Assembly (NCBI GenBank): GCA_902385255.1
Contig: CABMEV010000001.1
Coordinates: forward strand, 50,496 to 82,495
Direction of reading: 5' to 3'
Length of the DNA: 32,000 nt
DNA from: Candidatus Tiddalikarchaeum anstoanum
GTDB taxonomy: Archaea; Nanobdellota; Nanobdellia; Tiddalikarchaeales; Tiddalikarchaeaceae
The notes below the pieces were generated by a model, which saw nothing but the letters and a program-made list of their open reading frames with translations, was not told the origin of the DNA and searched no databases. Below, one piece after another: positions 3,200 through 30,920 of this stretch. The translations under genes and the position numbers were made by a program. Numbering within the stretch: position 1 is the stretch's first letter; every line of letters begins with the position of its first letter.

Positions 3200-4474
3200 A
3201 TGAGATATGAAGACTTCATAAACTTAAAATACACCCCTAAAAGTGACGATTTAATCTGTTTATTCAGAATAACACCAACTAATGAGTTTACCTTGAAAGA
3301 AGCAGCGATACGCGTCGCCGCAGAATCAAGCAATGGCACATGGAGCGACTTGAAAGTCCCGGAGCATATTTACGAATTAAGCGCTAAAGCTTATGAAATC
3401 AAAAAAGACTTTGTCAAAATCGCATACCCAGTAGACTTGTTCGAACAAGGAAACATGCCGCAGATTTTGTCATCAATAGCCGGAAACATATTCGGAATGA
3501 AAGCAGTATCAGGCCTCAGGCTTGAAGATGTGAAATTCCCGGAGAAAATTATAAGGAGTTTTAAAGGACCGCAGTACGGCATCGACGGAGTACGTAAAAT
3601 ATTAAAAATAAAAAACAGGCCTATAACTATTACTGTTCCAAAACCAAAAGTAGGATATTATCCTGAAGAGCATGCCAAGATAGCATATGAAGCGTGGACT
3701 GGAGGAGTAGACTTGCTAAAAGATGACGAGAACTTGTCAGACCAGTCATTCAACAGGTTTGAGAAAAGACTAAAACTTTGCATGAAGATGAGGGAAAAAG
3801 CCGAGAAGGAAACGGGCGAAAAAAAAAGCTATCTGATTAATATCACTTCCGAAACTAATGAGATGATAAGGCGCGCCAAAATGGTCAAAGATTATGGCAA
3901 CGAGTATATAATGATAGATACTTTAACTGCAGGCTGGGCAGCAACCCAGACAGTAAGGGACGCTTGCCAGGATTTAAAACTAGCCATGCACGGCCACAGA
4001 GCATTTCATTCAGCATTTGACAGGAACCCTCTTCATGGTTTAAGCATGAAAGTGGTAACCAGCGTTGCAAGGATGCAGGGAATAGACCAGCTGCATATTG
4101 GAGGAATGGGAAAACTTGCAGGCGATGAGGAAGAGGTTGAATCAAATTTTGAAAAGTGCTAATTAGATTCGAACGCTGAAAATGAAACAATGCTGCCGCA
4201 GGAATGGTTCGGCAAGAAGAAGATGCTAAGCATATGCTCAGGAGGGCTTCATGTCGGAATATTAAAACCAGTATTCGACCTCCTTGGAACTAATATTGGA
4301 GTTCAGATAGGAGGAGGCATACACAGCCACCCTGATGGGACTCACGCAGGAGCAATGGCAGTCAGGCAAGCAATCGATGCTTACATGAAAGATATTGCTA
4401 TAGAAGAATACGCGGAGAAGAATAAGGAGCTCAAAAGAGCATTAGACAAGTGGGGAACAAAAGTATACGAATAA
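3200..4474 (+). CDS. rbcL: Form III-type RuBisCO large subunit, interrupted by one in-frame TAA at 4160..4162 (ORF segments 3200..4162 and 4190..4474, same frame)
   Basis: N-terminal YxxFxxLxYxPxxxDLI, PKPKVG (KPK), LLKDDENL, HGHRAFH, GMGKLAGD. After the stop: SGGLHVG and GGGIHSHPDG. Codons 4163..4189 (LDSNAENET) are open in the same frame. Confidence 0.85.
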
Positions 4475-7135: not shown

Positions 7136-7303
7136 ATGAAGTGCGATATTTGCAAGAAAGGTAAAAGAAAAGTTTACAAGTGCAAGGAATGCAACCAGTT
7201 ATTTTGTGACGAGTGCGGGGACGCTAAACAACCAATGTGCGAGTTCTGTATAAAGTTCCAGGAAAATCAAAAATATACGGAAGAAATACCTCAACAAGAA
7301 TAA
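7136..7303 (+). CDS. 55-aa four-CxxC zinc-finger protein (below ORF-track cut-off)
   Basis: ATG 7136; translation MKCDICKKGKRKVYKCKECNQLFCDECGDAKQPMCEFCIKFQENQKYTEEIPQQE; TAA at 7301..7303. Eight Cys in four CxxC pairs. Confidence 0.55.
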   Translation: MKCDICKKGKRKVYKCKECNQLFCDECGDAKQPMCEFCIKFQENQKYTEEIPQQE

Positions 7304-10027: not shown

Positions 10028-10144
10028 GGGCGGGTAGCTCAGTCTGGTGGAGCGCTAGTCTTATAAGACTTGCACTAGTACAAAAAGTTTTTGGCTCAAG
10101 TCTGAGTCAACTAGTGGCCGGGAGTTCAAATCTCCCCCTGCCCA
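10028..10144 (+). tRNA. tRNA-Ile (anticodon UAU, 10062..10064) with a 43-nt intron at the canonical 37/38 position (about 10066..10108)
   Basis: Acceptor GGGCGGG/CCTGCCC, D arm GCTC-AGTCTGGTG-GAGC, anticodon stem CTAGT/ACTAG with loop CTTATA|A, T arm GGGAG-TTCAAAT-CTCCC. Intron has internal helix AGACTTG/CAAGTCT. No encoded CCA. Confidence 0.8.
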
Positions 10145-10209: not shown

Positions 10210-10515
10210 CTAATTTCTTAAGTCATATTTTTCTTTTATTAGTTTAACGAAGTTAAGATGTTTTTCTTTTTCTTCAGGCGTCATATTTGTTAAAATCTGA
10301 TTATACTCTTTTTTTATTTTTTTGTAATCAAAAGTTATTAAATCTTCTTTAAAAGCCTCGGAAAGATGATATACAAATAGTTGGTTATATTGTATCTTTT
10401 TTTCCATATATTTTAAAAATAACGGATCAAACTGGTTTAAGATTTTTTCAAGAAAATTAAAGGGTTTAAAGCAGTCAGCTAATGGTGCTTTTTGGTATTC
10501 AATTATTTCAAACAT
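10210..10515 (-). CDS. Hypothetical protein
   Basis: 101-aa ORF, Lys/Glu-rich, no recognisable motif. Confidence 0.4.
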   Translation of the reverse strand: MFEIIEYQKAPLADCFKPFNFLEKILNQFDPLFLKYMEKKIQYNQLFVYHLSEAFKEDLITFDYKKIKKEYNQILTNMTPEEKEKHLNFVKLIKEKYDLRN

Positions 10516-12402: not shown

Positions 12403-13320
12403 ATGAAAGTGCTCGAAGTGAACCATTTCAAAAATATGATTAACGAGACGGTTAAAGTCATCGAGGACAAGAAGGACTACTTAAATTATATAAATGTATA
12501 CCCAGTCAGGGACGGCGACACCGGAAACAATTTATTATCCACATTTAAGAATACAAGATTGTTGAATGAGAAGGCAAACGTCAAGGATTTCCTGATAGAC
12601 CTGAAAAAATTAGTATTAACCGGAGCCAGGGGAAACAGCGGAGTAATAATCTCACAATTCTACAAAGGATTCTGCAACCACCTCATTGGGTCCAAGAATA
12701 TTGGCACTTTCGAATTCGCAAAAGCAATAGAGAACGGCTACTACCAAGCGTACAACTCCGTAAGTAAACCTGCCGAAGGCACAATGCTCAGCGTGTTAAA
12801 AGGAGCAAGCATAGGTGCTATCAAAGTATTAAAGAAAAGCGAATCAGTAATAGATGTATTGGAGAGCTCATTCAAATCAGCGCAAAAATACTTAAAAAAA
12901 ACTGTGAAACAGATTCCCATACTTAACAAGTCAGGTGTTGTAGATGCAGGCGGCTTGGGTGTTGTCTACATGCTCGGCGCATGGATGCGGGCAATAGGAG
13001 TACTGCCCAAATATGACCCTTCAATTAACAACTTGATATTAAAAGAGCCGCTTAGCAGCGGGATCAAAAATAAGTACTGCATATCAGTCTTAATTAAAGA
13101 CTGCAAGCATGAAAAAGAGCTGAAAGACCTTCTTAACTCACTTGGTGACTCATTGGACATAGGGGGAGACATTAATGCAGTCAAAGTTCATATTCACGCC
13201 AATGATTACGAAAACGTTAAGGCTGTATGTTCAGCATTTGGTGAATTATCAAGTTTCGAATATGACAATATGATGGAGCAAAATGAGAAAATTAGAGAAT
13301 ATAAAAATAATAACGGATGA
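12403..13320 (+). CDS. fakA: Fatty-acid kinase FakA-like protein (Dak2/DhaL kinase domain plus central domain; lacks the usual C-terminal domain)
   Basis: INVYPVRDGDTGNNL, GARGNSGVIISQFYKGFC, KPAEGTMLSV, GVVDAGGLGV and GDSLDIGG..VKVHIHA...YDNMMEQNEK line up with staphylococcal FakA residues ~1-330 as I recall that sequence. Confidence 0.8.
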   Translation: MKVLEVNHFKNMINETVKVIEDKKDYLNYINVYPVRDGDTGNNLLSTFKNTRLLNEKANVKDFLIDLKKLVLTGARGNSGVIISQFYKGFCNHLIGSKNIGTFEFAKAIENGYYQAYNSVSKPAEGTMLSVLKGASIGAIKVLKKSESVIDVLESSFKSAQKYLKKTVKQIPILNKSGVVDAGGLGVVYMLGAWMRAIGVLPKYDPSINNLILKEPLSSGIKNKYCISVLIKDCKHEKELKDLLNSLGDSLDIGGDINAVKVHIHANDYENVKAVCSAFGELSSFEYDNMMEQNEKIREYKNNNG

Positions 13321-14104
13321 GACTATTGATTTTTATCCAAGCTTTAATGAAAAAGAAATAGTCGTAATCAAAAACCACTTATTCCTGAACGGCAAAGAAG
13401 TTAGCCTGACAAAAAAAGAATTCTACGAGAAGATAACCGACAAGAAAAATCATTTCACAACAAGCCAGGCAAACCCTGAAGATTTTCTTGAAGTATTCAA
13501 AAAATATTCGGATTATAAAATTATAGTGATAACTGCGACTTCCAAGATGAGCGGCATAAACAACAGCGCAAACATTGCAAAAAAAGAAATGCCAAATAAT
13601 GATATTGCAGTAATAGACTCGGAGTCGTTAAGTGCAGGCCTCTCAATACTGGCAGATTTAGGATTACACCTAATCAAAGAAGGAGAAAGTTATGATAATA
13701 TTGTTAAAAAACTTGAAAACTTAAAACATAAGATAAAACTATTCTTCTTATTGACAAACCTTGACTACCTCGTGTCAAGCGGCAGGGTGAATAAAATAAT
13801 CGGATTCCTTGGAAAAGTAGTCAATATGAAACCCTTATTGGAGATTAAGGAAGGTGTGTTAACCAGCGCAGGAGCAATGATATTATCAAAAGATATGGTT
13901 AACTCTTTTTATGAATTCCTTGAAAATAAAATAAGAAATACGCATAAGATATTTATCATACACAACAACTTGGATGCTGAAATGAGGGCGCTGAAAAGTA
14001 AACTGGGACGAGGATATGACATTGAAATCATAAACTTCTTAAACACGCTTCTTGGCGTTTACAGCGGACCTGAATGCTTGGCAGTAGGATGGGTTGAAGA
14101 ATGA
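13283..14104 (+). CDS. fakB: DegV-family fatty-acid-binding protein (FakB-like)
   Basis: IKIITDETIDF, TTSQANPEDF, ATSKMSGINNSANIA, VIDSESLSAGL, LDYLVSSGRV, KPLLEI, GVYSGPECLAVGW. GGAG lies 5 nt before the ATG. Overlaps fakA by 38 nt. Confidence 0.88.
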   Translation: MRKLENIKIITDETIDFYPSFNEKEIVVIKNHLFLNGKEVSLTKKEFYEKITDKKNHFTTSQANPEDFLEVFKKYSDYKIIVITATSKMSGINNSANIAKKEMPNNDIAVIDSESLSAGLSILADLGLHLIKEGESYDNIVKKLENLKHKIKLFFLLTNLDYLVSSGRVNKIIGFLGKVVNMKPLLEIKEGVLTSAGAMILSKDMVNSFYEFLENKIRNTHKIFIIHNNLDAEMRALKSKLGRGYDIEIINFLNTLLGVYSGPECLAVGWVEE

Positions 14105-14697
14105 CATACGGCATTTTCTTGTCATGCATAATCAGCTACATTTTAGGCAGTTACCCGACTGCTTATTTCATAATCAGGATGTTTGAAAGAAAAAACATAT
14201 TCGAATCAGGTGATAAGAATATGGGCGGAACCAATGGATTAATAATATCCAAATCATATAAAATATTTTTCCTGATAGGACTAGTTGATATCTTAAAATC
14301 TTTTTTCGCAGCAGTAACATCTTACTACATAATTAAAGATTTCTGGCTGGCAGCTTTATTATCCGGGATATTCAGCACTCTTGGCCATAACTACAGCGTA
14401 TTTAAAAATTTCAAGGGAGGAAAAGGTGCGAGCACTAATGCAGGAACATTCTTTTTCATAAATCCATCAATGATGGTTTTATTCCTGCTAAGCATAATGG
14501 TGTTATCATTAAGCAATAAAAAATTAAATTTTACGAATAATGAATTCGTCGAGTCAATATACAGGATGATATTATTTTTAACGCTAACATCACTATTTTT
14601 TCCAGACTTCTTCATTCACGCATTAGTGCTGCAATCATTGTCTGTTTTAAAATACGCAACTGAAGGACAGTTTAGCAAAAAAATTCTAGAGTTTTAG
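14101..14697 (+). CDS. plsY: Acyl-phosphate:glycerol-3-phosphate acyltransferase PlsY
   Basis: YILGSYPTAY, GDKNMGGTN (aligns without gaps to GSGNLGATN), DILKS, LGHNYSVFKNFKGGKGASTNAG. ATGA start/stop overlap with fakB. Confidence 0.85.
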   Translation: MTYGIFLSCIISYILGSYPTAYFIIRMFERKNIFESGDKNMGGTNGLIISKSYKIFFLIGLVDILKSFFAAVTSYYIIKDFWLAALLSGIFSTLGHNYSVFKNFKGGKGASTNAGTFFFINPSMMVLFLLSIMVLSLSNKKLNFTNNEFVESIYRMILFLTLTSLFFPDFFIHALVLQSLSVLKYATEGQFSKKILEF

Positions 14698-18873: not shown

Positions 18874-18957
18874 GCGGGGTTGCCGGAGTGGTCAAACGGG
18901 CATGGCTAAGGACCATGTGGCTTAGTGCCTACGCGAGTTCGAGTCTCGTATCCCGCA
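18874..18957 (+). tRNA. tRNA-Leu, anticodon AAG (long variable arm)
   Basis: Acceptor GCGGGGT/ATCCCGC, anticodon arm CATGG-CTAAGGA-CCATG (U33, AAG, G37), 15-nt variable arm TGGCTTAGTGCCTAC, T arm GCGAG-TTCGAGT-CTCGT. Confidence 0.75.
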
Positions 18958-19920: not shown

Positions 19921-20433
19921 ATGTTAACTTATTCTGATGCATTAACACTGCTCAAAGCCGTCGGCTGCTCGGAGCATGTAATAAATCACTGCAAACAGGT
20001 TAGCGAGAAAAGCAAAGAACTAGCTTTGAAACTGTTATTAAAAAGCCATAAAGTTGATGTTGAACTCTGCACCATCGGAGGATTATTGCATGACATTGGA
20101 CGAAGCAAAACGCATTCAATAACTCATGGCGTTGAAGGTGCAAAACTGCTTGAAGCTTATCCTAACCTGGCAAGGATTGCAAAGACCCATACAGGTGCAG
20201 GCATTGATAAAGCGGAGGCAAAAAAGTTAGGACTGCCTCCTGGTGATTATATTCCAAGAACAGTTGAGGAGAAAATAGTCTGCTACTCGGACAAGCTCAG
20301 TGATAATGGTAAAATATCAGATAATGTTATCCCAAGGGTAAAAAGGATGGAAAACGAGTTAGGCAAAGACCACTCTTCAATTCAAAGATTAAAAAAATTA
20401 GAAAAAGAAATAAAAAAATTAATTACTCCTTAA
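19921..20433 (+). CDS. HD-domain phosphohydrolase (small archaeal HD family)
   Basis: H...LLHDIGR...HGVEGAKLL...KTHTGAG...YSDKL. Confidence 0.75.
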   Translation: MLTYSDALTLLKAVGCSEHVINHCKQVSEKSKELALKLLLKSHKVDVELCTIGGLLHDIGRSKTHSITHGVEGAKLLEAYPNLARIAKTHTGAGIDKAEAKKLGLPPGDYIPRTVEEKIVCYSDKLSDNGKISDNVIPRVKRMENELGKDHSSIQRLKKLEKEIKKLITP

Positions 20434-23592: not shown

Positions 23593-25060
<1,468 letters not shown>

Positions 25061-25250: not shown

Positions 25251-26249
25251 ATGTTAAAATCACAGGAAGAATCCGCCTTAGAAAGAGTATTATATACTTT
25301 ATCTTTAGATAGTGATTTTAGTCAAGCTATACGTTCATCAAAAAGTACAGAGTATTTATCTGAAAATCCATATATACTACTTCATTCTATGCCTGCTTTT
25401 AGAGAATCATTTTTTAAAGTATTCCTTGACCAGCAGTACAGAATTTTTTCTAAAGGTGTAGATACAAATGAAGCAGATAAAGATAGAAATTACGCTTATC
25501 ATCTGCTTTCCAGGATTTCAAACATTGAAGAGTTAGCAAAGATGTTAAAATTAGAATTGCCTAAAGAGTATTTCGAAAAAAGAGCAATGTTTTGCAAAGA
25601 GACAAAAACATCAATGATAAGTTTACTGTTTAAAGAGTCAAACTTAGATACACCTAATTGTTCTTTTGGTTTTGAATCTCTTTTTAGCGGATTAAAAGCT
25701 ATTTTTGAAGCAGCAAACACTGCAATTCCTAATCTGGATGATGCACGAAAAGAGACATATAAATTACTTATTCCTAGATTAGAAGAATGTATTAGTACTA
25801 ACTTAGCCAGGAAAAACATGTTTCTTCAAGATATTATTGCATTTTCTTGGGAATTTACTTATTTAAATCATATGCTTAAATATATTGGCGCAAAGATTGA
25901 TGAAAAAGGTATGAAGTTAAGAAATGATGTGTTTATACAAGTAGCGGATGATTTAAAAATTAATCAATCAAAAATTGAGGATATTTATAGACTATCTGCC
26001 ATTTATAACTTATTTACTAAGCTTATTATACAATTAAAACCAGATTTTAATAATGCTGAATTAAAAAATGCATTTTCAAAACTAGTATCAGTTGAAAAAA
26101 ATGAAGTAACTTATGACTGCACATCTAAATTTTATCAAGATTTAGAGATTCTAGCTGAAAATAAGTTTAGTTTAGATACAAGTCTTGACGATGAAACTAA
26201 TGAACTTTTACTCGGCAAAGTAGACAATCTTAAATTTATAAAACAATAA
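25251..26249 (+). CDS. Hypothetical protein (AT-rich, probably helical)
   Basis: 332-aa ORF, no recognisable motif. My hand count of the first 100 nt gives 30 G+C. Confidence 0.5.
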   Translation: MLKSQEESALERVLYTLSLDSDFSQAIRSSKSTEYLSENPYILLHSMPAFRESFFKVFLDQQYRIFSKGVDTNEADKDRNYAYHLLSRISNIEELAKMLKLELPKEYFEKRAMFCKETKTSMISLLFKESNLDTPNCSFGFESLFSGLKAIFEAANTAIPNLDDARKETYKLLIPRLEECISTNLARKNMFLQDIIAFSWEFTYLNHMLKYIGAKIDEKGMKLRNDVFIQVADDLKINQSKIEDIYRLSAIYNLFTKLIIQLKPDFNNAELKNAFSKLVSVEKNEVTYDCTSKFYQDLEILAENKFSLDTSLDDETNELLLGKVDNLKFIKQ

Positions 26250-27028: not shown

Positions 27029-27681
27029 AGAGGAATGGAAATTAGAACTTTTTTTTAGCAGAGCAGCAACACATTTTTTTTGAACTAAGTTTGAGTAGTT
27101 CTTTGTTTATCGCGTAGTTGCGAATCTTTTTCGCTGGATGCTTTTTTAAGCTCTTTTTCTCCATTCCTCCTTAACTCTTTTTTTTGGGTCCATGTAATTA
27201 AAAAATAAAAAATTAAAAAATGTTAAATTTTTTTAGTTGAGTTGAAAAATAAAATAAGTGCAATTTTAGCATAGTTAGTTTTTCGTTTTAGTACAGAGCA
27301 AGACAGTAATTAAGCAAGTGTCGCTTTTGACTTGGGTCCCAAACAATTTCAGGGGACTGGTCGTTTTCGATTACATTTTTTTTCTTGGATTTACTAATCT
27401 AAACTAGTCATGCTGTTCTTTAATTGCAAATATTTTATTTTTTTAAAACAACCCTCGAGAAATTCTTAGAAATTTTGTGCTTTCATCGGGTTAGTATCTT
27501 GAAAAACATGATGTTATGGCGCCTGCTACTTTAATGAGCCATACACATACGTGATTCAAGTTATTAACCACAACTTAAAAGTTAAACGCTAGTTATATAA
27601 AAAACCTTCGAAGTAATATATCGAGTCACTAAATAGTTATTAAAAATGTTTATATACGTTAATCCTTTTTGCATCTAAAAT

Positions 27682-28971
27682 ATGCACCTCGAAAACTTGC
27701 TGAAGAAGGTTACTACGAAAAAGTTAATCTCATTTTATAATATTGTTGAGAAATTAAAAACTACTATGAGGTATGATAACCAGGAGGGTATTGCTGACTC
27801 TGTTGCTGACCATTCTTTCAGGCTGGGTGTCATGGCATACTTAGTTGCCGAGCATTATAACCTTGATATTGACAAGACTAAAGCGGTTGATTTGGCTTTA
27901 ATTCATGATATGGGCGAGTACTTGCATGGTGATGTGGACCAGAGAAAGATAAGGGAGGGAGTGGTTTCGAAGGATGATAAGGAGAAGCTTGAAGAGGAAG
28001 GTTTAAATGAGTTAAAAAAAGCTCTTCCAAGGACTATGCGTAATTATCTGTCGAATTTATGGGAAGAATATAATTCTTTGTCAACTCCTGAGTCAAAGTA
28101 TATTAAGGCGTTGGATAAGTTGGAGAGTATGCTTCGCATATCCAACAAGGGGTATAAAGTGTTTATGCCTTCATTCACTGGCGAGAATGATGGCGCCCAA
28201 GCGAAGCTGATAAATTACGCGGATAATGCTGTCCGCTCATATCCACCTCTTGCCTGTTTGAATTCTATTGTTAAGAATAGGATTAAGTCAGAGTTTGACA
28301 AAGTGGGTTTTTCGTGGCCTAGTTCCTGCAATGAATTCCTGGATTCCGGATGCTCTGATGATTTGGTGCAGATTGTTTCCTTCCTTGATACTATTGAGAA
28401 TTTAAAGTGCGAGCTTAGGTATGGCAAGGTTAAGACTAGTATGAGCGAGTCTGTTGCCGGCCACATGTTCAAGCTTGCAGTTATGACTTTCAGTTTCGCT
28501 AAGCAGTACGATTTGAAGCTTGATGTTTATCATGCGTTAAAGCTTGCTTTAGTTCATGACTTGGGTGAGTGTTTCGAGGGTGATATTCCTGCTGCTGACG
28601 TCCACTTGGGTGAGATTTCCAAGGAGGAGAAGTTCTCTATTGAAGAACGCGGTTTTAAAAAACTCTGAGGGTTATTGCCTGAGAATTTAGGCACTGATAT
28701 TTTAGATTTATGGAAGGAGTATGAGGTCGGGGCGACGATTGAGTCGCAGTACGTTAACGCATTGGATAAATTGGAGGCCCAGCTTCATGTCTGCAGCGTT
28801 GGGGAACATCGTTTATTGAAGAGTTACAGTCTAACTCCTGTTTATGCTGACAAGGCAGTTCTTAGGCTTAATATATTTAAGGATATGCTGCAGAGTATTA
28901 AGATTACTATGAGGGCGCAGTTTGAGAATGAAGGTTTAGAGTGGAAGAAGGATTATAACCTGTTTATGTAA
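27682..28971 (+). CDS. Tandem-duplicated YfbR-like HD-domain phosphohydrolase (5'-nucleotidase-like), interrupted by one in-frame TGA at 28666..28668 (ORF segments 27682..28668 and 28675..28971, same frame)
   Basis: Repeat 1: ADHSFRLGVMAYL...LIHDMGEYLHGDV...YIKALDKLES. Repeat 2: AGHMFKLAVMTF...LVHDLGECFEGDI...*...YVNALDKLEA. Confidence 0.75.
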
Positions 28972-29360
28972 TTGTTTTGTTTTAATTCCCTGTATTGCCT
29001 GTACCACTCGTCAACTCTTTTGCAGTCCAGTGTCGGGTTCATCTCAATGTGTGGTTTTAATGCTCCGCTGAATGTTTTTGGGATGTGTAATAATTCATGT
29101 ATTAATACTTTAACTTTGTCATCTTCGTTCAGGTTCAAGTATTTTGAGTATAATAATTCTATTACATATTTTGGGCTGCTGTTGAATGCTGCTGTGAAGA
29201 TTCTTGGAGTGCTCCATATCCTGGCGAGTGCTCTGCTTGTGCTGTTTTTTGAGAATACGCATCTTACGAATTCGGTGTTGATGTGGTCCCAGCCTAGTGT
29301 TTCAACCAAGTCTTTCATCTTTTGTTCTGCTTCATCTGCGCGTATAAAATCAAGATTCAT
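28953..29360 (-). CDS. Small predicted zinc metallopeptidase (HExxH)
   Basis: 135 aa with ARIWSTPRIF...YVIELL...VLIHELLHIP. Resembles the archaeal predicted-metallopeptidase family. Confidence 0.55.
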   Translation of the reverse strand: MNLDFIRADEAEQKMKDLVETLGWDHINTEFVRCVFSKNSTSRALARIWSTPRIFTAAFNSSPKYVIELLYSKYLNLNEDDKVKVLIHELLHIPKTFSGALKPHIEMNPTLDCKRVDEWYRQYRELKQNNYINRL

Positions 29361-29454: not shown

Positions 29455-29526
29455 GGGCTGGTAGCTCAGTAGTAGAGCGCCGCATTTGCAATGCGGAGGT
29501 CCAGGGTTCGAATCCCTGCCAGTCCA
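29455..29526 (+). tRNA. tRNA-Ala (anticodon UGC)
   Basis: 72 nt. Acceptor GGGCTGG/CCAGTCC with G3:U70, anticodon arm CCGCA-TTTGCAA-TGCGG, T arm CAGGG-TTCGAAT-CCCTG. Confidence 0.9.
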
Positions 29527-30920
29527 TTAAAAACTATTTAAAGACATTTATTTCTTAATTCTTAAATGGTTAATCAAAAAATTTATACTTTAACTAATGG
29601 GTTATTAGTAGGATTAGAGAAAGATGATTCTAAAATAGTGTCAGTTAAGTTAATTTTGAATACAGGTTTGTTAGATGAACTTCCTGGAGATGAAGGAATA
29701 TCACATTATGTTGAACATATGATAATTAGAGGGGGGTCCAAAAAATATACACAAACAAAGTGTGATGAAATTAATCGTTCATTTACTTATAATGCTACTA
29801 CTTATTCTGATAAAACTGAATATATAGGTTCGTTCTTAGCAGAAGATACAAATCTTTTTATAGATTACTTATCAGATACAGTCTTTAATCCAATATTTGA
29901 TAATAATAAATTAGAAGAGGAACGTAAAAGAATATTACAAGAAATTTCTGATAAAAAGGGAGATTATGTTTTTAAAGATTTTAAGTTATTTTATGATGAA
30001 CTTTTTGGAAAATATGCAAATCATAATTATGACGCATCACTTGAAAAATCAGTAATTTCTTCAGCTACTGTTAAACAACTTAAAAAATTTCACAAAAATA
30101 ATTATTTACCTGGAAATAGTAAATTAATAATTAAAGGAGACTTCCCAGATAATATTGAAGACTTAATAATAACTAATTTTGGAGACTTAAAAGGCAGTAA
30201 AAAAAAGATTATTCACCAAACTCCTCAAAATATAAATGGACCTAGAATAATTCATACTAGAGCTACCGAAACTGAAAGTTTAGTTATAAAAATAGGTATT
30301 CCTATATATTCAGATAAAAAAGAGGAAAAAACATTAATAGATCTAATTTCATACATTTTAGGAGGAGCATATAATTTTGAATCGGAATTATTTAATTCTT
30401 TAAGTTTAAAAAAAGGTTTAGTATATTCTATTAATGTTAATTATAATAATAACTGTATTTTTATAAATTGCAGAACAAATCCTAATAATAAAGAAGAAAC
30501 AATTGATGCAATATTTTCATCTTTTGAGGATATTAGAACAAAATTAATACCTGAAGACAAACTTAATCATATTAAGAAAAAGGCTAAATATGGAATTTTA
30601 TTAATTAATGAATTGAGTAAACATAGTTTTGAAGGATTAGAAGACAAAATTAATGGAGATAATTTTGATGAAAACATAGATATTATTAATAATGTAACAC
30701 CTGAAAATATAAAAGAAACTGCAATAAAATTCCTTCCTGAAAATAAGAATGGTAATTATGTAATGTTATTAAAAGACCCATTAAAAGAATCAGAAACTAA
30801 TCAATCTGATTATACAATTTAAGCTTAATATTTTTTATTTTAGAATAGTAACTCATTTAATGAAATTTAATCAATTTATCTGATTTTTTTAATGTTAGGA
30901 TTGAGCAGCTTCCGAGGCTT
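29527..30920. mobile_element. Possible remnant of a tRNA-Ala-targeted insertion (bounded by the tRNA 3' end and its 17-nt duplicate); no integrase present
   Basis: Exact repeat GAATCCCTGCCAGTCCA at 29510..29526 and 30921..30937. The enclosed gene is visibly AT-richer: my hand count of its first 100 nt gives 24 G+C. Confidence 0.3.
29566..30822 (+). CDS. M16 (pitrilysin) family zinc peptidase-like protein
   Basis: Inverted zinc motif HYVEH (HxxEH) near residue 47, and LEEERKRILQEI about 70 aa downstream. 418 aa, the typical two-lobed M16 size. Confidence 0.7.
   Translation: MVNQKIYTLTNGLLVGLEKDDSKIVSVKLILNTGLLDELPGDEGISHYVEHMIIRGGSKKYTQTKCDEINRSFTYNATTYSDKTEYIGSFLAEDTNLFIDYLSDTVFNPIFDNNKLEEERKRILQEISDKKGDYVFKDFKLFYDELFGKYANHNYDASLEKSVISSATVKQLKKFHKNNYLPGNSKLIIKGDFPDNIEDLIITNFGDLKGSKKKIIHQTPQNINGPRIIHTRATETESLVIKIGIPIYSDKKEEKTLIDLISYILGGAYNFESELFNSLSLKKGLVYSINVNYNNNCIFINCRTNPNNKEETIDAIFSSFEDIRTKLIPEDKLNHIKKKAKYGILLINELSKHSFEGLEDKINGDNFDENIDIINNVTPENIKETAIKFLPENKNGNYVMLLKDPLKESETNQSDYTI

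Follow-up and report, generated by a model that had tools for sequence, protein, structure and literature searches.

A tandem HD_3 phosphohydrolase gene with a single in-frame TGA codon in a DPANN archaeon

In a 32-kb stretch of contig CABMEV010000001.1 from Candidatus Tiddalikarchaeum anstoanum (hereafter the window, meaning the whole of the DNA analysed), a gene at 27682-28971 on the forward strand encodes two HD-domain phosphohydrolase units in one frame, the second of which is interrupted by a single TGA codon. A second gene, 24 kb away and encoding the large subunit of form III RuBisCO, is interrupted by a single in-frame TAA. The reading we favour, which we hold to be probable rather than assured, is that each stop arose by a separate single-base nonsense change in a genome with the standard code, the two being real, recent loss-of-function alleles, either fixed or segregating. 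Both alleles are as called in the consensus sequence.

Results

The open reading frame (ORF) of the HD gene starts at ATG 27682 on the forward strand and runs for 328 codons to the TGA at 28666-28668. Beyond this codon the frame remains open for 100 further codons, closing at TAA 28969-28971, for a total of 429 codons; at the base composition of the window, 100 codons in a row would stay open with a probability of about 4.5e-4. When we re-read the ORF and its translation, the coordinates and content that a preliminary description of this DNA had given for 27682-28971 proved exact. Proteins labelled Candidatus Nanoarchaeia or Nanoarchaeota share 70-72% identity with the RuBisCO of the window, which points to a DPANN archaeon as the source of the DNA. 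The window has a G+C content of 34.7% and carries an archaeal 16S rRNA gene at 23593-25060. With a G+C of 0.41, and of 0.47 at third codon positions (GC3), the HD gene lies within the range of the window, and its codon usage fits as well; the gene is native to an archaeon of Nanoarchaeota type (DPANN).

The translated frame matches the Pfam family HD_3 (PF13023) in two stretches (E-value 1.3e-62, 210.9 bits against a cut-off of 22.5) and YfbR-like (PF12917) likewise in two (E 3e-27, 95.9 bits against a cut-off of 25.9), and the Pfam HD profile is also matched. Unit 1 (residues 1-222; 27682-28347, forward strand), delimited by these three profiles, by alignments and by the helices of a structural model, consists of an HD core and a C-terminal tail. 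Its metal ligands are H44, H75-D76 and D145; the HD pair is followed by E79 and D84, and R30-Y31 lies near the N-terminus. The corresponding ligands of unit 2 are H261, H292-D293 and D362, with E296, D301 and R246-Y247 in addition. The part of unit 2 that precedes the stop (residues 223-328; 28348-28665, forward strand) was placed by Pfam, by the alignment to the solved structure 4dmb and by family alignments, whereas the part that follows it (residues 330-429 and the terminal TAA; 28669-28971, forward strand) was placed by translation, alignments and a consensus-match test. The TGA itself, codon 329 on the same strand, was located by the sequence, the alignment of relatives and the model. The better-scoring of the two HD_3 stretches, residues 238-373, spans the stop codon uninterrupted. 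The alignments also show ExxxGD and ALDKLE motifs in each half; the halves are 39% identical to each other.

These results bear out the preliminary description, which had proposed a fused tandem HDDC2/YfbR-like HD protein: there are two HD_3 units, each with a full set of ligands, and the alignments place H..HD..D and ALDKLE in both halves. It had further put the conserved C-terminal helix of the second repeat beyond the stop, and both D362, the fourth metal ligand of unit 2, and the second ALDKLE helix are indeed encoded 3' of the TGA. The Lys that it had seen opposite the stop in a gap-free self-alignment of the halves is Lys112.

Judged from its sequence, each unit of about 205 amino acids would be a whole HDDC2/YfbR-like metal-dependent nucleotide monophosphatase, the two being fused head to tail. 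By homology, the H..HD..D set of each would coordinate one divalent metal (Co or Mn), and 5'-(deoxy)nucleotides would be hydrolysed. The characterised protein closest to the query is human HDDC2 (PDB 4dmb), which is both its best sequence match (E 4e-20) and its best fold match (TM 0.72-0.76). HDDC2 shares the all-helical HD fold, and its H..HD..D ligands and ExxxGD and LDKxE motifs recur in each half of the query. However, HDDC2 has one unit only, about 200 amino acids long, whereas the query comprises two units in one frame, the second broken by TGA. The alignment of the query to 4dmb passes through the stop, with the TGA opposite a Thr.

Escherichia coli YfbR and yeast YGK1 are 5'-deoxynucleotidases (PDB 2paq and 5yox), to which the query is linked by its match to the YfbR-like family and by a mononuclear metal site with four ligands. 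It differs in falling below the cut-off of the NCBIfam equivalog NF003009 (65.9 against 122 bits). In a motif-based mapping of the YfbR specificity residues R18, W19 and D77, the query has equivalents of the Arg and Asp in R30/D84 and R246/D301, and Tyr31 and Tyr247 in place of the Trp. As W19 is the residue by which YfbR excludes ribonucleotides, and as Tyr takes its place in both halves, the substrate preference of the query may differ from that of YfbR. YfbR is a dimer whose ligands are H33, H68, D69 and D137, and replacing any one of them abolishes its activity (PMC8177086). On this precedent, a product ending at residue 328 would keep unit 1, while unit 2 would be deprived of its fourth ligand.

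An AlphaFold2 model, built on an eight-sequence alignment, is compact, all-helical and confident (predicted local distance difference test 87.5, predicted template modelling score 0.90). In it, codon 329 corresponds to the loop that joins helices 314-327 and 334-349. Foldseek, with TM normalised to target length, returned solely single-domain chains, namely HDDC2 (4dmb), 1xx7, 3kh1, 2cqz, YfbR (2paq), OxsA and YGK1, at TM 0.6-0.79; there was no solved tandem form among the PDB neighbours of the model. The two units are probably packed like a dimer of single-unit enzymes, and the tandem fusion could thereby mimic the dimeric quaternary structure of YfbR (PMC8177086). As YfbR is dimeric, it is reasonable to describe the protein as a covalent pseudo-dimer.

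Around the TGA the frame reads KKL-X-GLLPENLGTDILDLWK. We aligned the site across a comparison set of 19 two-unit relatives, in which the residue opposite the stop is Arg in eight, Ala, Ile, Lys and Val in two each, and Ser, Leu and Gly in one each, and is never Cys. The site is a variable surface position at which Arg is commonest. AGA and GGA, each one substitution away from TGA, occur often in the window (92 and 157 uses, respectively). Beyond the stop, 59% of conserved columns match the family consensus, compared to 59-69% in the other segments. There are no signs of decay in the 100 codons after the stop, where the key residues are kept; the conserved Y347, E354, D362, K363 and E365 are all retained. 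That a single in-frame TGA is followed by conserved sequence had been noted before, and comparison of relatives confirms that the downstream part is family-like. We found no close orthologue and no same-species copy of the codon in the protein database (where only the window's own truncated ORFs appeared), in reference genomes or, using a degenerate pattern, in JGI metagenomes; looking up the protein of the window itself likewise gave no entry.

Homology searches returned full-length two-unit relatives of 413-437 amino acids, with 23-33% identity and 82-97% coverage of the query. An exhaustive profile search gave 588 representatives (at 50% identity) with E <= 1e-30; of the best 150, some 60 have lengths of 380-445 amino acids, and most of these come from bacteria of the Candidate Phyla Radiation (CPR). 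A scan of reference genomes was made, of which the best 80 loci were kept; the two-unit-length matches among these are all from CPR bacteria (Saccharibacteria L001, which is protein P0003; Gracilibacteria L003; Nealsonbacteria L028 and L029), and the archaeal matches are all of single-unit length. The uncharacterised CPR/Patescibacteria proteins (P0003, L003, P0002 and P0008) resemble the query in architecture, length and full motifs in both halves. Unlike the query, they are uninterrupted and, where the organism is named, bacterial, whereas the copy in the window is archaeal. Indeed, all 19 relatives of the comparison set are uninterrupted, while the query has both units in frame but a TGA at codon 329. 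The possibility raised earlier, that relatives are single-domain proteins and the downstream part is not conserved, does not hold, as two-unit relatives exist and the downstream part is conserved. Tandem HD_3 is an existing, uncharacterised architecture; what is new here is an archaeal, interrupted member. We found no conserved gene neighbourhood among the HD_3 relatives. At one locus (L084, 5001-7075), a tandem HD_3 gene is followed directly by another HD_3 gene fused to DUF1653, a combination also seen in the Woesearchaeota protein P0039.

Many single-unit proteins of 200-215 amino acids match either half of the profile end to end. One of them, P0284, ends in ...DWKKEYDLFM, much like the C-terminal tail of the HD protein (...LEWKKDYNLFM). 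Because single-unit proteins match end to end and share this tail, it appears that the duplicated unit was a whole small protein. We examined its history with a bootstrapped neighbour-joining tree of separate halves and single-unit proteins. The halves of the P0008 group form a clade with one single-unit protein (100% bootstrap), and the two halves of P0062 pair with each other (100%). The P0002 group has a clade of first halves (100%) and a clade of second halves (96%), and for the query halves as exclusive sisters the support is only 21%. The grouping of tandem halves by lineage rather than by position implies either repeated independent duplication or concerted evolution, and on this tree the family appears to have undergone tandem duplication more than once, mostly in CPR bacteria.

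The second interrupted gene, which the preliminary description did not mention, lies at 3200-4474 on the forward strand and was delimited by annotation, a same-frame scan and alignments. A single in-frame TAA at 4160-4162 splits it into same-frame ORFs at 3200-4162 and 4190-4474. Read through, it encodes 424 amino acids, as compared to 421-425 in its relatives, matches solved form III enzymes at E 1e-136, and contains all catalytic motifs. The residues around the stop are NFEKC-X-LDSNAENETMLPQEWFGK. At this site Ser is found in 17 of 19 close relatives and Tyr in the other two; TCA, the commonest Ser codon of the window, is one substitution from TAA. Of 135 columns without variation among its relatives, the protein deviates at only one; the relatives themselves deviate at 0-4 in the same test. 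The RuBisCO gene shows neither decay nor an elevated error load. A relaxed same-frame scan of the window found no further interrupted genes, and no frameshift or truncated domain was seen in the other ~20 Pfam-supported genes of the ~22 annotated. As for a signal common to both stops, we considered and rejected sequence context, a hairpin, and a depletion of the CTCA motif of the kind that would hint at methylation-linked systematic error.

A tally of 35 ORFs in the window gave 24 that end on TAA, six on TGA and five on TAG. Among those ending on TGA is a DegV gene with a complete domain (profile positions 2-279 of 280, protein residues 7-272 of 273); an AA_kinase gene and a Dak2/FakA_M gene also end on TGA with complete domains. 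Reading TGA as sense lengthened no other real gene in the window. As domain-validated genes end on TGA and no other gene is extended, TGA is a normal terminator here, and we rejected genetic codes 4 and 25 on these grounds. The Gracilibacteria homologue L003 (5950-7300 of JBAZXZ010000005.1, a metagenome-assembled genome) shows what true reassignment of TGA looks like. Translated with the standard code, L003 meets 13 in-frame stops, several of which take the place of the family-conserved Gly in the HDxxExxxGD motifs of the two halves, as expected for code 25, while the query has one TGA only, at a variable site. The database proteins P0005 and P0006 have Trp at the reassigned sites; they were evidently translated with code 4, and the Trp is spurious.

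Other ways of decoding the TGA were likewise rejected. Selenocysteine is disfavoured by the lack of Cys in relatives, of an Rfam match to a selenocysteine insertion sequence (SECIS) and of a 3' untranslated region, the gene having a 19-nt convergent overlap at its end. Inheritance of the TGA from a code-25 donor through gene transfer is disfavoured by there being a single TGA, by the Arg of L003 and the Lys of P0005 at this position, by native composition, and by identities of at most 33%. No suppressor was found among the tRNAs of the window, which are Glu, Ile(UAU), Leu(AAG) and Ala.

At the RNA level, an 11-bp hairpin (28671-28698, forward strand) starts 3 nt past the TGA; at -10.5 kcal/mol it ranks within the top 2-3% by stability of the 45-nt coding stretches of this DNA. 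Structure downstream of the RuBisCO TAA is unremarkable (74th percentile). A TTG codon (Leu331; 28675-28677, forward strand), recognised by sequence 6 nt past the stop, is a possible reinitiation codon for a C-terminal fragment of 98 amino acids, whose N-terminal peptide would be MPENLGTDILDLWK. Overlapping the stop is GAGG (28667-28670), a weak match of Shine-Dalgarno (SD) type to the 16S tail (-6.1 kcal/mol, where 17% of random sites reach -6); genes within operons of the window do use SD motifs. Because TTG 28675 and ATG 4190, the equivalent codon of RuBisCO, encode family-conserved residues (the Leu of 'LLP' and the Met of 'MLxQ'), they are not evolved starts. No stand-alone C-terminal fragment of about 100 amino acids turned up, the smallest relative listed in the searches being 160 amino acids long.

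The HD gene has several neighbours of note. A PhageMetallopep gene (PF18894, E 1.7e-16; 28953-29360, reverse strand) is convergent to it and overlaps its final 19 nt. The 650 bp upstream of it (27029-27681), a long stretch for a compact genome, has stops in all six frames and no ORF of at least 40 amino acids beyond 27164. This gap gave no credible Rfam match, even at a relaxed threshold, and no decayed gene remnants were seen by eye in six-frame translations of it and of two other gaps. A second, unrelated protein with a single HD domain (PF01966, E 6e-13; 170 amino acids) is encoded 7 kb upstream at 19921-20433 on the forward strand.

Elsewhere in the window, the 16S rRNA gene and a tRNA-Ala(UGC) gene (29455-29526) are separated by five protein genes that include the HD gene. 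With no 23S gene following in the window, the rRNA genes do not seem to be linked. A position 34 adenosine is unusual for an archaeal tRNA; a tRNA-Leu at 18874-18957 (forward strand) has the anticodon AAG in the loop CUAAGGA. A tRNA-Ile(UAU) of 117 nt at 10028-10144 (forward strand), matched by Rfam and missed by ARAGORN, has a 44-nt intron after the anticodon loop position. At 12403-14697 (forward strand) lies a bacterial-type fatty-acid/phospholipid cluster, an overlapping operon of a Dak2 plus FakA-middle protein, DegV (FakB-like) and PlsY (glycerol-3-phosphate acyltransferase). A small uncalled ORF at about 7136-7303 (forward strand) encodes a zinc-ribbon protein with four CxxC motifs (MKCDICKKGKRKVYKCKECNQLFCDECGDAKQPMCEFC...). 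An M16 peptidase gene (29566-30822, forward strand) has a G+C of 0.24 and a GC3 of 0.11; GC3 is also low at 25251-26249 (forward strand; 0.18) and 10210-10515 (reverse strand; 0.22), most genes having 0.35-0.47. These three low-G+C ORFs may be recent acquisitions.

Discussion

If the two stops are ordinary nonsense lesions, then one substitution would have made the TGA at codon 329, the ancestral codon most likely being AGA or CGA (Arg) or GGA (Gly), and the RuBisCO lesion, of the same kind and independent, would have changed TCA (Ser) to TAA. The main product of the HD gene would be 328 amino acids long, with unit 1 intact and unit 2 without its last four or five helices and Asp362; in this product unit 2 should be inactive. 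As the 100 codons downstream are undecayed, the HD lesion appears to be recent, and as the assembly otherwise looks clean, showing neither frameshifts nor a surplus of unusual residues, we infer that the allele is real rather than an artefact. Several observations weigh against this reading. The alleles are carried by one contig alone, with no same-species sequence found, which leaves room for an artefact. Two nonsense codons with no frameshift in 32 kb make an odd spectrum for ordinary gene decay, and both interrupted genes are otherwise pristine, as a gene with a tolerated or decoded stop would be. A fairly stable hairpin lies 3' of the TGA. Finally, two affected loci among ~35 far exceed the ~0.4% reported to be split or truncated in complete Nanobdellota genomes (bioRxiv 10.64898/2026.05.13.725050), and this excess keeps less ordinary readings alive.

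An error of assembly or sequencing, or a minor strain allele promoted to the consensus, would leave the real genes intact, as a 429-codon HD_3 gene and a whole RuBisCO. Each stop is one substitution from a codon expected at its site in a gene that is otherwise perfect, and the alleles are found on one contig only. Had the ancestral codons been GGA and TCA, the two lesions would each be a G:C to T:A change, a known class of oxidative-damage artefact. However, no frameshift or sign of poor consensus was seen in the ~22 annotated genes, the invariant sites of RuBisCO show no surplus of changes, and two nonsense codons by random error would need tens of substitution errors per 32 kb. In short-read assemblies, consensus substitution errors are far rarer than that. 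We consider an artefact unlikely, though a contender to be taken seriously. Still less likely, in our view, is a functional split gene, in which translation would stop at the TGA and restart at TTG 28675, the 98-residue fragment then joining the 328-residue product non-covalently to restore unit 2, with a similar restart in RuBisCO at ATG 4190. The start codon lies close behind the stop that GAGG overlaps, SD motifs are in use in operons of the window, termination-reinitiation is documented in archaea (PMC6728339), and in the model the stop falls in an inter-helix loop with undecayed sequence downstream. Yet the SD match is equalled by so many random sites as to be weak, both candidate restart codons are conserved family residues, the TTG is hidden within the hairpin, none of the relatives is split, and the matches listed include no stand-alone fragment of about 100 amino acids.

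Programmed or leaky read-through of the UGA by a near-cognate or suppressor tRNA, perhaps aided by the hairpin, would yield some full-length enzyme of 429 amino acids. UGA is generally the leakiest stop codon, and the stability of the hairpin and the undecayed, conserved sequence downstream fit such a mechanism. Against it, a stop is found at the site in none of the 19 relatives, the RuBisCO stop is a TAA with neither a hairpin nor a common context, and no suppressor is among the tRNAs of the window. Moreover, recoding demonstrated in Archaea is limited to read-through of the selenocysteine and pyrrolysine type and one -1 frameshift (PMC8211752, PMC8037382). The archaeal recoded genes, such as Sulfolobus solfataricus fucA1 with its -1 frameshift and the selenocysteine and pyrrolysine genes, resemble the HD gene in being conserved and interrupted with intact coding sequence beyond, but have defined signals and conserved interruptions (PMC8211752), whereas the query stop is absent from all relatives and has no signal in common with the second interrupted gene. 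We thus regard read-through as very improbable. That TGA is sense, as selenocysteine, in a reassigned code (4 or 25) or as the relic of a code-25 donor, could be suggested by the two-unit genes of Gracilibacteria, which read TGA as Gly, and by the predominance of CPR bacteria among the nearest relatives. It is effectively refuted by the genes that TGA terminates in the window, the single TGA at a variable site as compared to the 13 of L003, the lack of Cys and of room for a 3' SECIS, native G+C and codon usage, and the low identity to any CPR homologue. More broadly, the notion that the archaeon still expresses its stop-interrupted HD nucleotidase and RuBisCO, by suppression or two-piece reinitiation, with stops that are tolerated or regulatory, seems to us a long shot. 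Better supported than a tolerated stop is that tandem fusion of the HD unit has arisen repeatedly in separate lineages.

We return, then, to nonsense lesions as the favoured explanation, under which the HD locus is fit for annotation as a nonsense-disrupted HD_3 (pseudo)gene rather than as a case of recoding. The importance of the finding is modest. It offers a clean example of how an ordinary nonsense codon differs from code reassignment, with the Gracilibacteria homologue as a positive control, and the tandem HD_3 architecture is a possible system for studying how a homodimer evolves into a fused pseudo-dimer. If the alleles are real, genes for nucleotide and carbon salvage in a reduced DPANN genome would be at the first step of inactivation, which bears on ongoing gene loss in symbionts.

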